Positions 13,388-16,868 are shown, numbered from the stretch's first letter. The stretch: 22,290 nucleotides of DNA from a virus (IMGVR_UViG_2675903562_000009), one strand, 5' to 3'. The notes: generated by a model not told the origin, from the letters alone. Numbers and translations are program-made.

Positions 13388-14152
13388 ATGGAAGAACAGC
13401 ACGGTAATTACTTTATAAAACGAATTCAGTTGATTGGAAGGGGTGCATTTGGCTTTGTTGAACACGTTAAGGTTTACAACCTCAACAAGGGTGAATGTGG
13501 GGATTATGCTAGAAAGGTTTTAGCCCCCGAAAAACCAGAGCTTTTGGCGCAAATAGAGCAGTTTAGAAGGCGTTTTAAAAGGGAGGTCGTGTATCAATCA
13601 CATTGCGTACATAGCAATATTGTTCCTATTTATTTGTGCGATTTGTTTGCCGAGAATCCATGGTTCATTATGGATAAAGCAGAATGTGATCTTGAGCACG
13701 AAATAACGAACAACCTTCTTACAACAGATCAAAAAATTTCAATAGTGAAAATGGTATTAGATGGTGTAGCTCACATCCATGCGAAAGGCTATTTACACAG
13801 AGATATAAAACCATTTAATGTCTTGCGATTTAGCGACGGAACATACAAGGTGTCTGATTTTGGTCTGGTAAAAGATACAAATCCCGAAGGGGATACCACT
13901 AAATTGACCGAGATCGGTACCCGTATGGGAAGTACAAGATATATGGCTCCCGAGATTTTATATAATGCCGAGTATTCAGTTAAGACTGATGTTTATGCGG
14001 TGGGGCGGTTAATTGAGGACTTAAATTTAGATGATAAAAAAATAAAGCCTATCATAGCGAAGTGTACCAGGATGGATAAAGATGATAGATATCAGACAAT
14101 AGATGATGTGGCGTTTGATTTTGTGCATTCTTTTTTAAGGAGTGAGTCATGA
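13388..14152 (+). CDS. Hanks-type (eukaryotic-like) Ser/Thr protein kinase
   Basis: 254 aa from ATG 13388. Gly-rich loop GRGAFGFV, lysine in YARKVL, catalytic loop HRDIKPFNVL, DFG (VSDFGLV) and APE (YMAPEIL) motifs all present; region is visibly AT-rich relative to neighbours (not computed). Confidence 0.85.
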   Translation: MEEQHGNYFIKRIQLIGRGAFGFVEHVKVYNLNKGECGDYARKVLAPEKPELLAQIEQFRRRFKREVVYQSHCVHSNIVPIYLCDLFAENPWFIMDKAECDLEHEITNNLLTTDQKISIVKMVLDGVAHIHAKGYLHRDIKPFNVLRFSDGTYKVSDFGLVKDTNPEGDTTKLTEIGTRMGSTRYMAPEILYNAEYSVKTDVYAVGRLIEDLNLDDKKIKPIIAKCTRMDKDDRYQTIDDVAFDFVHSFLRSES

Positions 14153-14892
14153 TTCAGCTGATAGCGACTTCATCATTCTCGTATCCAAAAGAACCAGGTA
14201 GGGTCAACGAAGATTCATTGCTTCCTCCCAAAATTGTAGGGGATGGCATCTTATTTGCCGTAGCTGATGGTGTAGGTTCATACACTGGTGCCAGTCAGGC
14301 TTCATCAATGGCAATTGCTGAACTTTCAGCATTGACAAGCTTATCTTTTGACACAGTTCCGGATGTATTTGATGAAGTTAAGCGAAAGGTTATGTCGTTA
14401 GCTGATGTTAATGATGAGTTCGATAAAGCTGCTACTACACTTACGTTTTGTTATGTTTGTGATAGCGGAATTATTATTGGTCATATTGGTGATTGTCGTT
14501 TGTATTGCATTGGAGAGAAGAAAGCATACCAATTGACGAAGGACGATACCAGGCATCAGATGCTAATTGATCAGAATATTTTTAAACCCAGAGATTTGAA
14601 GGATAAACCGGGCAAAAATATCTTAACGACGGCTATAGCCTCAAATGTTGATATGGAATACGACTGTGATTTTATCACATGGAAAGATTTACCTAGTATT
14701 AACGGGGTATATCATCTGTGTATCATGTCTGATGGGGTTCATAACGTTTGGGAAAAACGCCCCAGATTTACATCAAATACGATGAGTAATAGTCAGAAGT
14801 TTTCTAATGGCATTTTGCGTCGTATAGAGAGAGCCGGACCTGATGATGACTTTTCTTTAGTAAGTATAATGGTGCGTGTGACGTCAGATTAG
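14149..14892 (+). CDS. PP2C-family Ser/Thr protein phosphatase
   Basis: 247 aa; start overlaps the kinase stop (ATGA) with AAGGAG SD; metal-binding motifs VNEDS, AVADGVGS, GDCR and MSDGV typical of bacterial PP2C phosphatases. Confidence 0.85.
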   Translation: MIQLIATSSFSYPKEPGRVNEDSLLPPKIVGDGILFAVADGVGSYTGASQASSMAIAELSALTSLSFDTVPDVFDEVKRKVMSLADVNDEFDKAATTLTFCYVCDSGIIIGHIGDCRLYCIGEKKAYQLTKDDTRHQMLIDQNIFKPRDLKDKPGKNILTTAIASNVDMEYDCDFITWKDLPSINGVYHLCIMSDGVHNVWEKRPRFTSNTMSNSQKFSNGILRRIERAGPDDDFSLVSIMVRVTSD

Positions 14893-14967
14893 TTGTATAA
14901 ACTCAGTAGGGAATGCTAATTTCACATACAACATAGTTAAAGAAAACTTAATTTTAATGTAAAAAGG

Positions 14968-14996
14968 CTGCCCTCAGGCGGTCTTTTTATGCTCGA
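14968..14996 (+). terminator. Probable intrinsic terminator after the kinase-phosphatase operon
   Basis: Imperfect hairpin GGCTGCC-CTCA-GGCGGTC (one G-U pair, one mismatch) followed by TTTTTAT. Confidence 0.4.
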
Positions 14997-15110
14997 AAAT
15001 TGATGCAGTACGTTAAACGCGCTGGTGGTTGCGAATACCGGTCTTTCAGCTTGCTGGCTTTTTAGACAAGAGTTATTGGTATGTCACGTTAACCAGAAAA
15101 GGGAAAAAGA

Positions 15111-15309
15111 CATGCTAAAACAGCAGGATATGACCGAAACCGCCAGAGTGGTGTTTAATGAATTAAGCGTCACCGAACCGGCGACCGTCGGGGAAATTGC
15201 GCAGAATACTTACCTTTCACGCGAACGCTGCCAGTTAATCCTGACCCAGCTTGTTATGGCGGGTCTGGCAGATTATCAGTTCGGTTGTTACAGACGCCTT
15301 CTGCAGTGA
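15111..15309 (+). CDS. Small putative winged-helix DNA-binding protein (66 aa)
   Basis: Track ORF 15025..15309 trimmed to ATG 15111 (MLKQQDMTETARVVFNELSVTEPATVGEIAQNTYLSRERCQLILTQLVMAGLADY); lies upstream of the methyltransferase. Confidence 0.55.
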
Positions 15310-15459
15310 AGGCTTTTTAATTTGTGGTAATGGGCGGCTGGTGGGTGTTAGCGGCACCTGCCAGCCATCTGCTCATGCGTTGGGGTCACAAGCAAACCTC
15401 AGGCCCATCTGCTTTGCGCAAAAGCAGTATGAGCCTATCAGAGAAGTGCTTATTGATCT

Positions 15460-16509
15460 ATGACTAATACTGTAAAAATATCCAGTTGTGAGTTAATCAA
15501 CGCTGATTGCCTGAAATTTATCCAGACCTTACCGGAAAACTCTGTCGATCTGATAGTCACAGACCCGCCATACTTTAAAGTGAAGCCCGAGGGCTGGGAT
15601 AACCAGTGGGAGGGCGACGATGATTACCTGAAATGGCTGGACCAGTGTCTGGCGCAGTTCTGGCGGGTACTGAAGCCTGCCGGAAGTCTTTACCTGTTCT
15701 GTGGTCATCGCCTGGCATCTGACACCGAAATCATGATGCGTGAGCGCTTTAATGTGCTGAACCACATTATCTGGGCGAAGCCGTCCGGACGCTGGAACGG
15801 GTGCAATAAGGAAAGTCTGCGGGCGTATTTTCCGGCAACAGAGCGCATTCTGTTTGCAGAACATTATCAGGGACCGTATCGCCCGAAAGATGATGGCTAT
15901 GTGGCACAGGGGCGCGAGCTAAAACAGCACGTCATGGCCCCGCTGATTTCTTACTTTCGTGATGCGCGTAAATCACTGGGAATAACGTCAAAACAGATAG
16001 CGGAAGCCACCGGAAAGAAAAACATGGCTTCGCACTGGTTTGGTACCAGTCAGTGGCAGTTACCGAACGAGGGTGATTACAACAAATTGCAGGCGTTGTT
16101 TGCGCGTGTTGCGGCAGAAAAACATCAGCGCGGGGAACTGGAAAAGCCACACCACCAGCTGGTCAGCACATACAGTGAGCTGAACCGGCAGTACACGGAA
16201 CTGCTGAGTGAATATAAAAATTTGCGGCGGTATTTCGGTGTGACGGCGCAGGTTCCGTACACCGATGTCTGGACGCATAAACCGGTGCAGTACTATCCAG
16301 GAAAACATCCGTGCGAAAAACCGGCAGAAATGCTGCAGCAGATAATCAACGCGAGCAGTCGTCCGGGAGACCTGGTTGCAGATTTTTTTATGGGTTCAGG
16401 TTCAACGGTAAAAGCGGCGATGGCACTGGGGCGTTGTGCGATTGGTGTTGAGCTGGAGACAGGACGTTTTGAACAGACAGTCAGGGAAGTTCAGGATTTA
16501 ATCGTTTGA
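15460..16509 (+). CDS. Orphan DNA methyltransferase (N6-adenine/N4-cytosine class, beta-type motif order)
   Basis: 349 aa; motif IV DPPY (VTDPPYF) near the N-terminus and motif I FFMGSGST near the C-terminus; overall architecture like YhdJ-type enzymes. No restriction endonuclease gene is adjacent. Confidence 0.9.
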   Translation: MTNTVKISSCELINADCLKFIQTLPENSVDLIVTDPPYFKVKPEGWDNQWEGDDDYLKWLDQCLAQFWRVLKPAGSLYLFCGHRLASDTEIMMRERFNVLNHIIWAKPSGRWNGCNKESLRAYFPATERILFAEHYQGPYRPKDDGYVAQGRELKQHVMAPLISYFRDARKSLGITSKQIAEATGKKNMASHWFGTSQWQLPNEGDYNKLQALFARVAAEKHQRGELEKPHHQLVSTYSELNRQYTELLSEYKNLRRYFGVTAQVPYTDVWTHKPVQYYPGKHPCEKPAEMLQQIINASSRPGDLVADFFMGSGSTVKAAMALGRCAIGVELETGRFEQTVREVQDLIV

Positions 16510-16558
16510 AACGGATGAGATTGCAGAATTAATTACGCACCATTATTATTCTGCTCCC

Positions 16559-16634
16559 GGCCCTTTAGCTCAGTGGTGAGAGCGAGCGACTCATAATCGC
16601 CAGGTCGCTGGTTCAAATCCAGCAAGGGCCACCA
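16559..16634 (+). tRNA. tRNA with CAU anticodon; closely resembles E. coli tRNA-Ile2 (ileX-type, lysidine-dependent), Met not excluded
   Basis: 76 nt with perfect 7-bp acceptor stem (GGCCCTT/AAGGGCC), D-arm GCTCAGTGGTGAGAGC, anticodon loop CTCATAA, T-loop TTCAAAT and encoded CCA. Confidence 0.85.
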
Positions 16635-16635
16635 A

Positions 16636-16712
16636 CCGTCACCAGTTCATCAGGAAAGAGCGTCAACCCTTTAAGTTGAGTGTGCGAGGTTCGAGTCCTC
16701 GGTGGCGGGCCA
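16636..16712 (+). tRNA. Non-canonical tRNA-like gene (anticodon loop CCTTTAA, nominal UUU) or tRNA pseudogene
   Basis: Acceptor stem CCGTCAC/GTGGCGG (one G-U), T-arm CGAGG-TTCGAGT-CCTCG and encoded CCA, but C at positions 8 and 33 and an atypical D-arm. Begins 1 nt after the preceding tRNA. Confidence 0.45.
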
Positions 16713-16714
16713 GT

Positions 16715-16790
16715 GCCGACTTAGCTCAGTAGGTAGAGCGACTGACTTTTAATCAGTAGGTCACCAGTTCGATTCCGGTAGTCGGCACCA
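16715..16790 (+). tRNA. tRNA-Lys (UUU) by anticodon loop
   Basis: 76 nt: acceptor GCCGACT/AGTCGGC, D-arm GCTCAGTAGGTAGAGC, anticodon stem ACTGA/TCAGT with loop CTTTTAA, T-loop TTCGATT, encoded CCA. Confidence 0.75.
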
Positions 16791-16793
16791 TAT

Positions 16794-16868
16794 GCGGGTA
16801 TCGTATAATGGCTATTACCTCAGCCTTCCAAGCTGATGATGCGGGTTCGATTCCCGCTACCCGCTCCA
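16794..16868 (+). tRNA. tRNA-Gly (UCC), near-identical to E. coli glyT
   Basis: Matches the remembered glyT sequence (GCGGG.ATCGTATAATGGCTATTACCTCAGCCTTCCAAGCTGATGATGCGGGTTCGATTCCCGC..CCCGCTCCA) apart from a compensated acceptor-stem base pair. Confidence 0.9.

Follow-up and report, generated by a model that had tools for sequence, protein, structure and literature searches.

The window analysed in this study, the whole of a 22,290-nucleotide stretch of viral DNA (IMGVR_UViG_2675903562_000009), is recognizable as a lambda-like prophage of E. coli in a defective copy. Between its late-control gene and a group of terminators it carries a row of accessory genes (positions 13388-16868) for a Ser/Thr protein kinase, a PP2C-family phosphatase, a small probable winged-helix (wH) protein, a DNA methyltransferase and tRNAs. 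An earlier reading of the same DNA, made without database searches (the sequence-only reading), had described them as one composite AT-rich island with an enzymatic logic loosely reminiscent of Pgl/BREX-type systems. Our comparative analysis revealed that no functional unit corresponds to this island: the kinase–PP2C pair, the wH open reading frame (ORF) with the methylase, and the tRNA array are three separately acquired modules. The explanation that we favour, with a probability of roughly 0.6 for it as a whole, regards the space between the antiterminator gene Q and the lysis genes of the lambda-like prophage as a cargo slot that holds these three modules.

Gene content of the post-Q region

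The late-control protein of the window is the antiterminator Q (12548-13243, plus strand; PF06323 Phage_antiter_Q, E = 5e-84), which is annotated as Q in identical RefSeq loci. All cargo genes lie downstream of Q on the plus strand and have terminator hairpins at their flanks, as revealed by ORF, Pfam and terminator scans. The gene content, coordinates and common orientation given in the sequence-only reading were confirmed by ORF, Pfam and tRNA searches, its placing of the genes between Q and terminators was correct, and the hairpins that it saw as bounding the region are real terminator-like structures with energies well below those of shuffled sequence. The description of the island as AT-rich holds for the first 1.7 kb (13.3-15.0 kb), i.e., the kinase–phosphatase part, with a GC content of 0.38-0.39, and fails for the wH and methylase genes, which have a flank-like GC content of 0.51.

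The first cargo gene (13388-14152, plus strand) codes for a Hanks-type Ser/Thr protein kinase of 254 aa, which consists of the bare kinase domain (Pkinase, E = 2e-33; phrog_2361, E = 2e-98). Its Pkinase score was 116 bits against a cutoff of 31.7, only Pkinase and PK_Tyr_Ser-Thr domains were matched, and the Hanks signatures G17-x-G19-x-x-G22, K43, E66, H137-R-D-x-K-x-x-N144, D157-F-G159 and E189 of the APE motif are present and invariant in comparison with four diverged homologues. The start codon of the second gene (14149-14892, plus strand) overlaps the kinase stop codon (ATGA). It codes for a PP2C-family Ser/Thr phosphatase of 247 aa (PP2C_2, E = 2e-14, 54 bits against a cutoff of 24), which also matched Stp1_PP2C_phos (E = 1e-26, under the cutoff of that family) and carries the metal-binding residues of PP2C enzymes, D22, D40-G41, D115, D195-G196 and D233-D234, in invariant form. 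A comparison of the window and VR50 types with each other and with a Cronobacter-like relative gave dN/dS ratios of 0.03-0.04 (kinase) and 0.08-0.12 (phosphatase), values by which both genes are judged to be under strong purifying selection.

Amino-acid changes have accumulated in the phosphatase at about three times the rate of the kinase, as would fit a partner of variable phage proteins. A fused kinase–phosphatase protein, suspected from PHROG profile coordinates, was also considered and rejected; the kinase gave no match to phrog_5650, and there is no evidence of fusion.

Downstream of the pair lies the 65-aa ORF (15112-15309, plus strand), which probably codes for a wH protein and belongs to phrog_331 (E = 3e-37), a family of unknown function. 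Seven winged-helix Pfam matches over residues 6-55, among them TrmB (E = 0.002), MarR_2, HTH_24 and Rrf2, were all sub-threshold and mutually consistent. A phmmer search of this ORF against the PDB returned no meaningful match, and its AF2 single-sequence model (pLDDT 61) was too poor for a fold search.

The methylase gene (15460-16509, plus strand) codes for an orphan beta-class N6-adenine DNA methyltransferase of the M.EcoGI/M.EcoGII family with a length of 349 aa (N6_N4_Mtase, E = 2e-44). The protein is identical to ABV17754 of the enterotoxigenic E. coli (ETEC) strain E24377A and shares 316 of 350 positions (90%) with M.EcoGII over the full length, the sequence of the latter being a machine-read one from the SUPREM supplement (PMC11551740) with a few probable reading errors. 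The motifs DPPY (35-38, N-terminal) and FMGSG (309-313, FxGxG, C-terminal) follow in the beta-class order, and no nuclease gene adjoins the methylase among the ORFs of the window. M.EcoGII is a prophage-borne enzyme of 349 aa that methylates adenine irrespective of sequence context; the lysogen does not express it, constitutive expression is deleterious, it is thought to be switched on when the prophage launches infection, and phage 1720a-02 has been named as the carrier of a very similar enzyme (PMC5778455). Homologues from Shiga toxin-producing E. coli with 92-94% amino-acid similarity have been called nonspecific by prediction only and are silent in lysogens (PMC6602927). The orphan state that the sequence-only reading had noted for the methylase is confirmed, and the anti-restriction role that it had suggested is probable, given the 90% identity to M.EcoGII and the agreement with published work (PMC5778455). 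Presumably silent in the lysogen, the enzyme would blanket progeny DNA with N6-methyladenine in lytic growth and so provide broad protection against restriction, and its position behind three terminators and downstream of Q would fit Q-dependent expression.

The tRNA array (16559-16868, plus strand) was called by ARAGORN, which reported four tRNAs, and at the Rfam tRNA threshold, which retained three; a search of 13.2-17.3 kb with Rfam revealed no RNA family except these three tRNAs. The tRNAs of the sequence-only reading are hence confirmed for three of the four sites, the second being doubtful. The first tRNA (16559-16634) carries a CAU anticodon, has identical copies annotated as tRNA-Ile in RefSeq and corresponds to ileZ of Shiga toxin (Stx) phages, a type that reads AUA after lysidine modification. 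The second site (16636-16712) is a tRNA-like sequence (Lys, UUU) with C at position 33, found by ARAGORN only and below the Rfam threshold; it is annotated as tRNA-Lys in one RefSeq relative, is unannotated in another and is probably degenerate. The third tRNA (16715-16790, anticodon UUU, Lys) and the fourth, a tRNA-Gly (16794-16868, UCC), were found by both ARAGORN and Rfam. Close copies of the third tRNA in the related loci L001, L006 and L031 have TGT in the anticodon, and those of L001 and L006 are annotated as tRNA-Thr (anticodon UGU). The TTT form is common to four IMG/VR contigs (L020, L023, L026 and L028) and may represent an anticodon-switched phage tRNA.

The AUA codon occurs 31 times per 1,000 codons in the kinase gene, 14-16 times in the PP2C and methylase genes and 0-4 times in the Q, NinG and tail-fibre genes. 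By this account the array would supplement codons that are rare in E. coli, above all AUA, which is frequent in AT-rich cargo. The AUA enrichment fits the usual codon-supplementation role of phage tRNAs, and the other tRNAs seem a poor fit to it. The idea that the tRNAs are tailored to the cargo found only partial support and was not retained, as GGA and AAA are not enriched and AGA/AGG are unserved.

Independent distribution of the three modules

The kinase–PP2C pair can be missing from an otherwise collinear prophage. The prophage of E. coli ECL27977 (L006) contains Q, the 65-aa ORF, the methylase, four tRNAs and holins, and has neither kinase nor phosphatase. The blastn alignment of the window with this prophage breaks at 13277 and resumes at 14980, so the pair is an insertion of 1,702 nt (13278-14979, plus strand; GC about 0.38) that replaces 46 nt of the empty-site prophage. 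The insertion brings its own 5' terminator and ends in a second terminator. Precise presence or absence between collinear phages, deviant base composition and a flanking terminator, three marks of a moron (an autonomous promoter–gene–terminator unit of cargo in a late operon), were observed here; as the further mark, a promoter active in the lysogen, there is the candidate -10-like element described below.

The pair also persists where the other modules are lost or replaced. VR50-type prophages contain Q, kinase and PP2C followed by the last 96 codons only of the methylase and by Ile-Arg-Arg tRNAs, with the 65-aa ORF absent. In EPSSH018 the order is Q, kinase, PP2C and the 65-aa ORF, and an AraC-family gene stands where the methylase would be. 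This AraC-family gene (L005, 6696-7409; HTH_AraC, E = 2e-13) directly follows the 65-aa wH ORF.

The frequencies of the modules differ as well. Of the 5,426 complete genomes of E. coli searched, 48-49 contain the pair and 2,128 the ORF–methylase segment. The window had matches to 327 records of the phage collection via its ORF–methylase–tRNA part, mostly Stx2 phages, phiP27 and 1720a-02; at the DNA level the pair was present in none of 50,697 phage records, a sensitive search mode matching its last 80 nt only, and phages yielded relatives of the pair at the protein level only. The co-occurrence across prophages that the sequence-only reading would have required of its island is thus contradicted by an independent distribution of the genes.

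The view that kinase, phosphatase and methyltransferase make up one methylation-linked defence system of the Pgl/BREX or MADS kind, with the small HTH protein as its controller, is in the light of these data very improbable. In the window and in about 19 E. coli genomes the genes lie side by side in one orientation, the best PADLOC match of the kinase domain is the MADS kinase mad6, and Pgl unites methylase, kinase and ATPase activities (PMC4365076). The adjacency of methylase and pair is, however, limited to a single E. coli lineage, that of the window, among about 65 loci; an empty-site prophage exists, relatives keep the pair after loss or replacement of the methylase, and other phages have no methylase next to the pair or have the lysis cassette in between. 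Moreover, every protein is of another family and size class than its supposed counterpart, so that only the abstract combination of activities is shared. PglW (NCBIfam NF033442) is a multidomain protein of about 1,400 aa, whereas the kinase of the window has 254 aa and scored 20 bits against a cutoff of 990. The phosphatase matched only PP2C_2 and PP2C in Pfam and gave no PglZ match in PADLOC. In place of PglX/BrxX (about 1,200 aa) there is a beta-class enzyme of 349 aa, whose best PADLOC model was the Type II MTase (527 bits, full length). No ORF for a PglY/BrxC ATPase or any other BREX or MADS gene is present in 13.2-17.3 kb. With MAD6 (NCBIfam NF047741) the kinase reached 66.7 bits against a cutoff of 460, its PADLOC mad6 match covers positions 51-243 of 659, and no other mad-type gene was found near the kinase among the ORFs of the window or by PADLOC. 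In contrast to Pgl/BREX type 2 (PglW, PglX, PglY and PglZ), the genes considered here are not co-inherited and the ATPase is absent.

The wH ORF and the methylase are usually syntenic. The two are adjacent in the 2,128 genomes and in hundreds of Stx-type phages, a diverged version of them (76% and 87% identical) is adjacent in locus L049 too, and control of the methylase would make sense with an enzyme family in which constitutive M.EcoGII is harmful (PMC5778455). All this could point to the 65-aa protein as a dedicated transcriptional controller of the methylase, similar to a C protein. Such a role is nevertheless doubtful, since the ORF also precedes the AraC-family gene or accompanies a DUF3927 gene where the methylase is missing, and related methylases of Escherichia phage Flotzy and of L045 and L047 do without it. 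Every HTH match of the protein was under the family threshold and no confident structure model was obtained, and the silence of the methylase is already accounted for by Q antitermination across terminators. The association of the two genes is frequent, not obligatory.

Taken as a whole the island is ordinary: the post-Q slot of lambdoid prophages gathers unrelated cargo, and genes that are merely neighbours can give the impression of a system where there is none.

Conservation and candidate expression elements of the kinase–PP2C pair

The pair was surveyed in 49 loci from IMG/VR, 11 from genomes and 8 additional neighbourhoods. Wherever the kinase match is near full length and leaves enough downstream room (about 65 loci), the kinase gene is followed by PP2C, usually with overlapping stop and start codons. 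The pairing holds down to roughly 30% identity in Enterobacteria, Haemophilus, Vibrio, Photobacterium, Pseudomonas, Xanthomonas, Aeromonas and Acidovorax. From this constancy, together with the conserved catalytic residues and the low dN/dS ratios, the kinase and PP2C genes are taken to be one unit.

The settings of this unit are diverse. Two sequenced phages carry relatives with 40-45% protein identity as kinase-then-PP2C pairs: Cronobacter phage phiES15 has Q, the pair and the lysis genes, the methylase being absent, and in Escherichia phage Flotzy, Q is followed by the methylase, the lysis genes, the pair and the terminase. In lambdoid late regions the pair uses two alternative slots, from Q to lysis and from spanin to the small terminase subunit. 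A Mu-like prophage has it among its head genes, and a P2/HP1-like prophage carries it terminally, in the opposite orientation and adjoining a SocA/Panacea gene. In Aeromonas and Acidovorax it stands alone among housekeeping genes, in Xanthomonas it lies beside a NACHT NTPase and a SymE toxin, and in P. putida it is part of a transposase/integrase island. At 90% identity the kinase family falls into at least 205 clusters, all with proteins of about 250 aa and with generic names only.

A distant subgroup of kinases (L010, 5989-7326; L013, 5992-7335) has a C-terminal extension of about 190 aa without a Pfam match, which could be a sensor domain; an overlapping PP2C gene follows here too. In a Serratia liquefaciens prophage (L073) a gene of the Mom family of DNA modification (2629-3348) is located upstream of the holin, in the slot that the methylase occupies in the window, and the kinase–PP2C pair of this phage comes after the lysis genes.

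Of the 49 E. coli genomes with the cassette, 42 have both kinase and PP2C intact, and none combines an intact kinase with a broken PP2C. This asymmetry is a weak hint in sequence data at a kinase that might be harmful without its phosphatase, as it is the pattern expected in such a case. Five of the 49 genomes have a frameshift, common to all five, that truncates the kinase to 218 aa and leaves PP2C intact; a 10-nt deletion in one further genome removes the N-terminus of the kinase, again with PP2C intact, and in another genome IS1 and IS3 insertions have destroyed both genes. These inactivations are represented by loci L075, L076 and L077 (E. coli 118UI, 510016 and SY033). Pathogenic lineages are among the pair-bearing E. 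coli, namely ETEC E24377A, strain 55989, VR50 and BEN2908.

Terminator-like structures are numerous in this part of the prophage: the scan of 12500-17700 revealed 16 sites against 5.2 expected from shuffled sequence. Directly 3' of Q lies a region (13244-13277, plus strand) that is common to prophages without the pair and whose place identifies it as the presumable late promoter of the PR' type. It is followed at the 5' end of the insertion by a hairpin with a T-run resembling an intrinsic terminator (13290-13311, plus strand; -13.5 kcal/mol, z about -3.9), which would shield the cassette from late-promoter transcripts that are not antiterminated; the same arrangement 5' of the pair occurs in phiES15. 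A second terminator-like hairpin (14959-14990, plus strand; -18.3 kcal/mol, z -4.6) marks the 3' end of the cassette. Its T-run is the site at which homology to the empty-site prophage resumes (14980), the T-runs of both coinciding. Terminators flank the cassette in three lineages, represented by the window, Flotzy and L058. The third structure before the methylase is a hairpin with a T-run (15296-15318, the hairpin being 15296-15313; plus strand; -10.2 kcal/mol, z -2.6) over the stop codon of the wH ORF.

The cassette itself contains a conserved element before the kinase. In an alignment of 100 nt around the kinase start from 21 cassettes, TAnnnT preceded by G is invariant within a conserved block, and in the window this -10-like element reads GTAAGAT (13347-13353, plus strand), 41 nt before the kinase ATG. 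Of 12 diverged representatives, 11 have GTAnnnT at a distance of 37-42 nt 5' of the ATG, whereas none of 2,000 shuffles reached 11 (shuffle mean 2.7). A promoter of the cassette's own at this element is plausible. Hexamer pairs picked by eye before the kinase were discarded because of wrong spacing. The conserved block was likewise rejected as an additional Q-dependent late promoter with a -10-like pause element, since the would-be -10 at 16-nt spacing is not conserved.

The remaining features of the window concern the prophage backbone. Upstream of Q are a DUF968/NinG-like gene (11064-12185) and RusA (12198-12557). Between the tRNAs and the truncated holin gene the terminator scan revealed four terminator-like hairpins within 350 nt (16966-17308, plus strand), at the place that stx holds in Stx phages; in the related prophage L001 a hypothetical ORF (17739-17999) is annotated in RefSeq across this stretch. 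The homology with intact relatives, among which the one in strain 503025 has a complete late region, is lost within the holin gene at about 17636, and the frame runs on from there into the apparent C-terminal part of a tail-fibre protein (about 17283-18746 in the window). This large internal deletion has removed the lysis, terminase, head and most tail genes, and on induction the window prophage could express its cargo and yet form no virions. Rfam matches to the sok antitoxin RNA (9522-9697, plus strand) and to DicF RNA (2616-2667, minus strand) mark a lambdoid backbone of the Qin/Kim type; L001 has hokD in the corresponding part of its early region.

Proposed function of the pair and comparison with known systems

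The nearest model for the function of the pair is KKP, a prophage PP2C–kinase–kinase module of Pf, P2, P4 and Mu-like prophages with a role in defence and as a toxin-antitoxin system, in which kinase activity is the toxin and the phosphatase neutralizes it. Its defence against lytic phages is triggered by a phage protein that inhibits the phosphatase, and it governs Pf prophage activation via phosphorylation of MvaU (PMC11341870). By analogy, the pair of the window may act as a two-component phosphorylation-based toxin–antidote and anti-phage module, a proposal to which we give somewhat less than an even chance. A more specific form of it, to be regarded as a little more tentative still, is that the pair represents a stripped-down counterpart of KKP: a minimal two-gene abortive-infection or toxin–antidote cassette with its own promoter and a phage-sensing phosphatase, which would have spread through lambdoid, P2-like and Mu-like prophages as well as through defence islands, in Gammaproteobacteria and outside them, and which would place defence in late operons, acting in lysogeny as well as in lytic growth.

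The course of events can be drawn from the KKP analogy. The bare Hanks kinase would autophosphorylate and phosphorylate cellular or incoming-phage proteins, and the translationally coupled PP2C would continuously undo this phosphorylation. If an infecting phage inhibited or outpaced the phosphatase, the kinase would prevail and the growth of that phage would stop. Upon induction of the prophage, Q-modified RNA polymerase would read through all three modules.

Several points weigh against this interpretation. The scan for consensus sigma-70 promoters before the kinase revealed no canonical -35/-10 pair in the window, Flotzy and L058, and a strong terminator precedes the kinase; for both reasons the expression in the lysogen on which a defence role would depend is only presumed. 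The gene order with the toxin first and the single kinase without FHA or cold-shock domains (CSD) are unlike KKP. The PADLOC matches of the kinase (mad6, PD-T4-6 and Stk2, E = 1e-28 to 1e-40), which speak in favour of the proposal as a likeness to defence-type kinases, span the generic kinase domain only. The asymmetry of inactivation described above reflects only two or three independent events, and the searched literature contained no experimental work on this kinase–PP2C family. As for the other modules, the tRNA set (Ile, Lys-like, Gly) misses AGA/AGG, codons that are also enriched in the kinase gene, and the methylase differs from M.EcoGII in 10% of its residues, the central target-recognition region included, so that the non-specificity of the window allele is a predicted one.

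The pair is co-oriented with the late operon in about 40 phages, which would equally fit a function in the lytic cycle. As a phage tool made only upon Q antitermination, the kinase could shut off host functions or defences in the manner of the T7 kinase, and PP2C could limit the damage done by leaky expression or erase the phosphorylation set by host defence kinases. Lambdoid phages always hold the pair inside the Q-dependent late unit, co-oriented and in one of the two slots, the window has a terminator before the pair and no canonical promoter was found there, and phage kinases can be broad counter-defence factors (PMC13645617). This alternative is unlikely on balance, because the pair is kept under purifying selection outside late operons as well, at housekeeping sites, opposite to tail genes and beside NACHT/SymE, and the cassette carries a conserved -10-like element of its own. 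Counter-defence would also be poorly timed if made late, and the T7 kinase is of a different family with DPV for DFG, whereas the kinase of the window has the canonical DFG.

A regulatory or lysogenic-conversion module, which would set the phosphorylation of a host regulator such as a nucleoid protein and thereby tune induction or host physiology, is rather less likely again. It would agree with the action of KKP on Pf activation through MvaU besides defence (PMC11341870), with an AT-rich cassette typical of H-NS-silenced cargo and with the presence of the pair in the pathogenic lineages ETEC E24377A, 55989, VR50 and BEN2908. No direct evidence for it was obtained, the great diversity of hosts and element types argues against one specific host regulator as target, and the pair is 100% conserved even though the window prophage is defective.

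The pair is worth following up, as it is compact, strongly conserved, widely mobile and uncharacterised, with more than 200 clusters at 90% identity in many Gammaproteobacteria, and resembles recently described kinase/phosphatase switches of defence and lysogeny in a simpler architecture. If the pair is a toxin–antidote or defence module, it would extend this class to lambdoid phages of enteric pathogens, including enterotoxigenic, enteroaggregative, uropathogenic and avian pathogenic E. coli, in the form of a two-protein system that would be easy to dissect.

In contrast to the pair, the methylase and the tRNAs are already explained by published work, and together with the small ORF they are known cargo of the Stx-phage type. 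With M.EcoGII and M.EcoGI of E. coli O104:H4 prophages (Murray et al. 2018, PMC5778455) the methylase shares its length of 349 aa, 90% identity, the prophage location and the orphan state, and phage 1720a-02 has the same wH–methylase–tRNA neighbourhood as the window. In Stx2-converting phages and phiP27, with the order Q–methylase–tRNA (ileZ-argN-argO)–stx, the wH ORF, the methylase and the first tRNA have 83-92% DNA identity to those of the window and the same post-Q position. The window differs from them in having no stx genes, in its tRNAs (Ile, Lys-like, Lys(UUU) and Gly instead of Ile, Arg and Arg) and in the insertion of the pair upstream.

Among kinases, Stk of the Shiga-toxin phage 933W resembles that of the window in being eukaryote-like and in belonging to the cargo of a lambdoid prophage of E. 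coli, and according to Friedman and colleagues it reportedly excludes phage HK97. The two proteins are only 25.7% identical in an alignment that spans 68% of the query. On the 933W record, stk is found at about 10 kb, on the strand opposite to the match, in a region that a related phage record calls "immunity region; similar to bacteriophage 933W", and unlike the pair of the window no phosphatase gene was matched in 933W-type records. The abortive-infection-type kinases Stk2 of Staphylococcus and PD-T4-6 of E. coli resemble the kinase of the window in their PADLOC models (E = 1e-28 to 1e-35). The match is confined to the kinase domain, roughly 60% of the profile or less (e.g., positions 11-201 of 327), and both systems differ from the pair in their additional domains and in lacking a phosphatase partner of their own.

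Compared by description with KKP (PfpC–PfkB–PfkA; Guo et al. 2024, PMC11341870), the pair consists of two genes, kinase then PP2C, instead of the three of a PP2C-kinase-kinase module, and in this it departs from the definition of KKP. The PfkA-like kinase carries a cold-shock domain and the PfkB-like kinase an FHA domain, whereas the kinase of the window has neither, its 254 aa leaving no room for them, and the typical home of the pair is the lambdoid late region. Common to both are a prophage-borne Hanks-type kinase with an adjoining PP2C phosphatase and a presence on temperate phages of several kinds in the vicinity of genes for defence and mobile elements.

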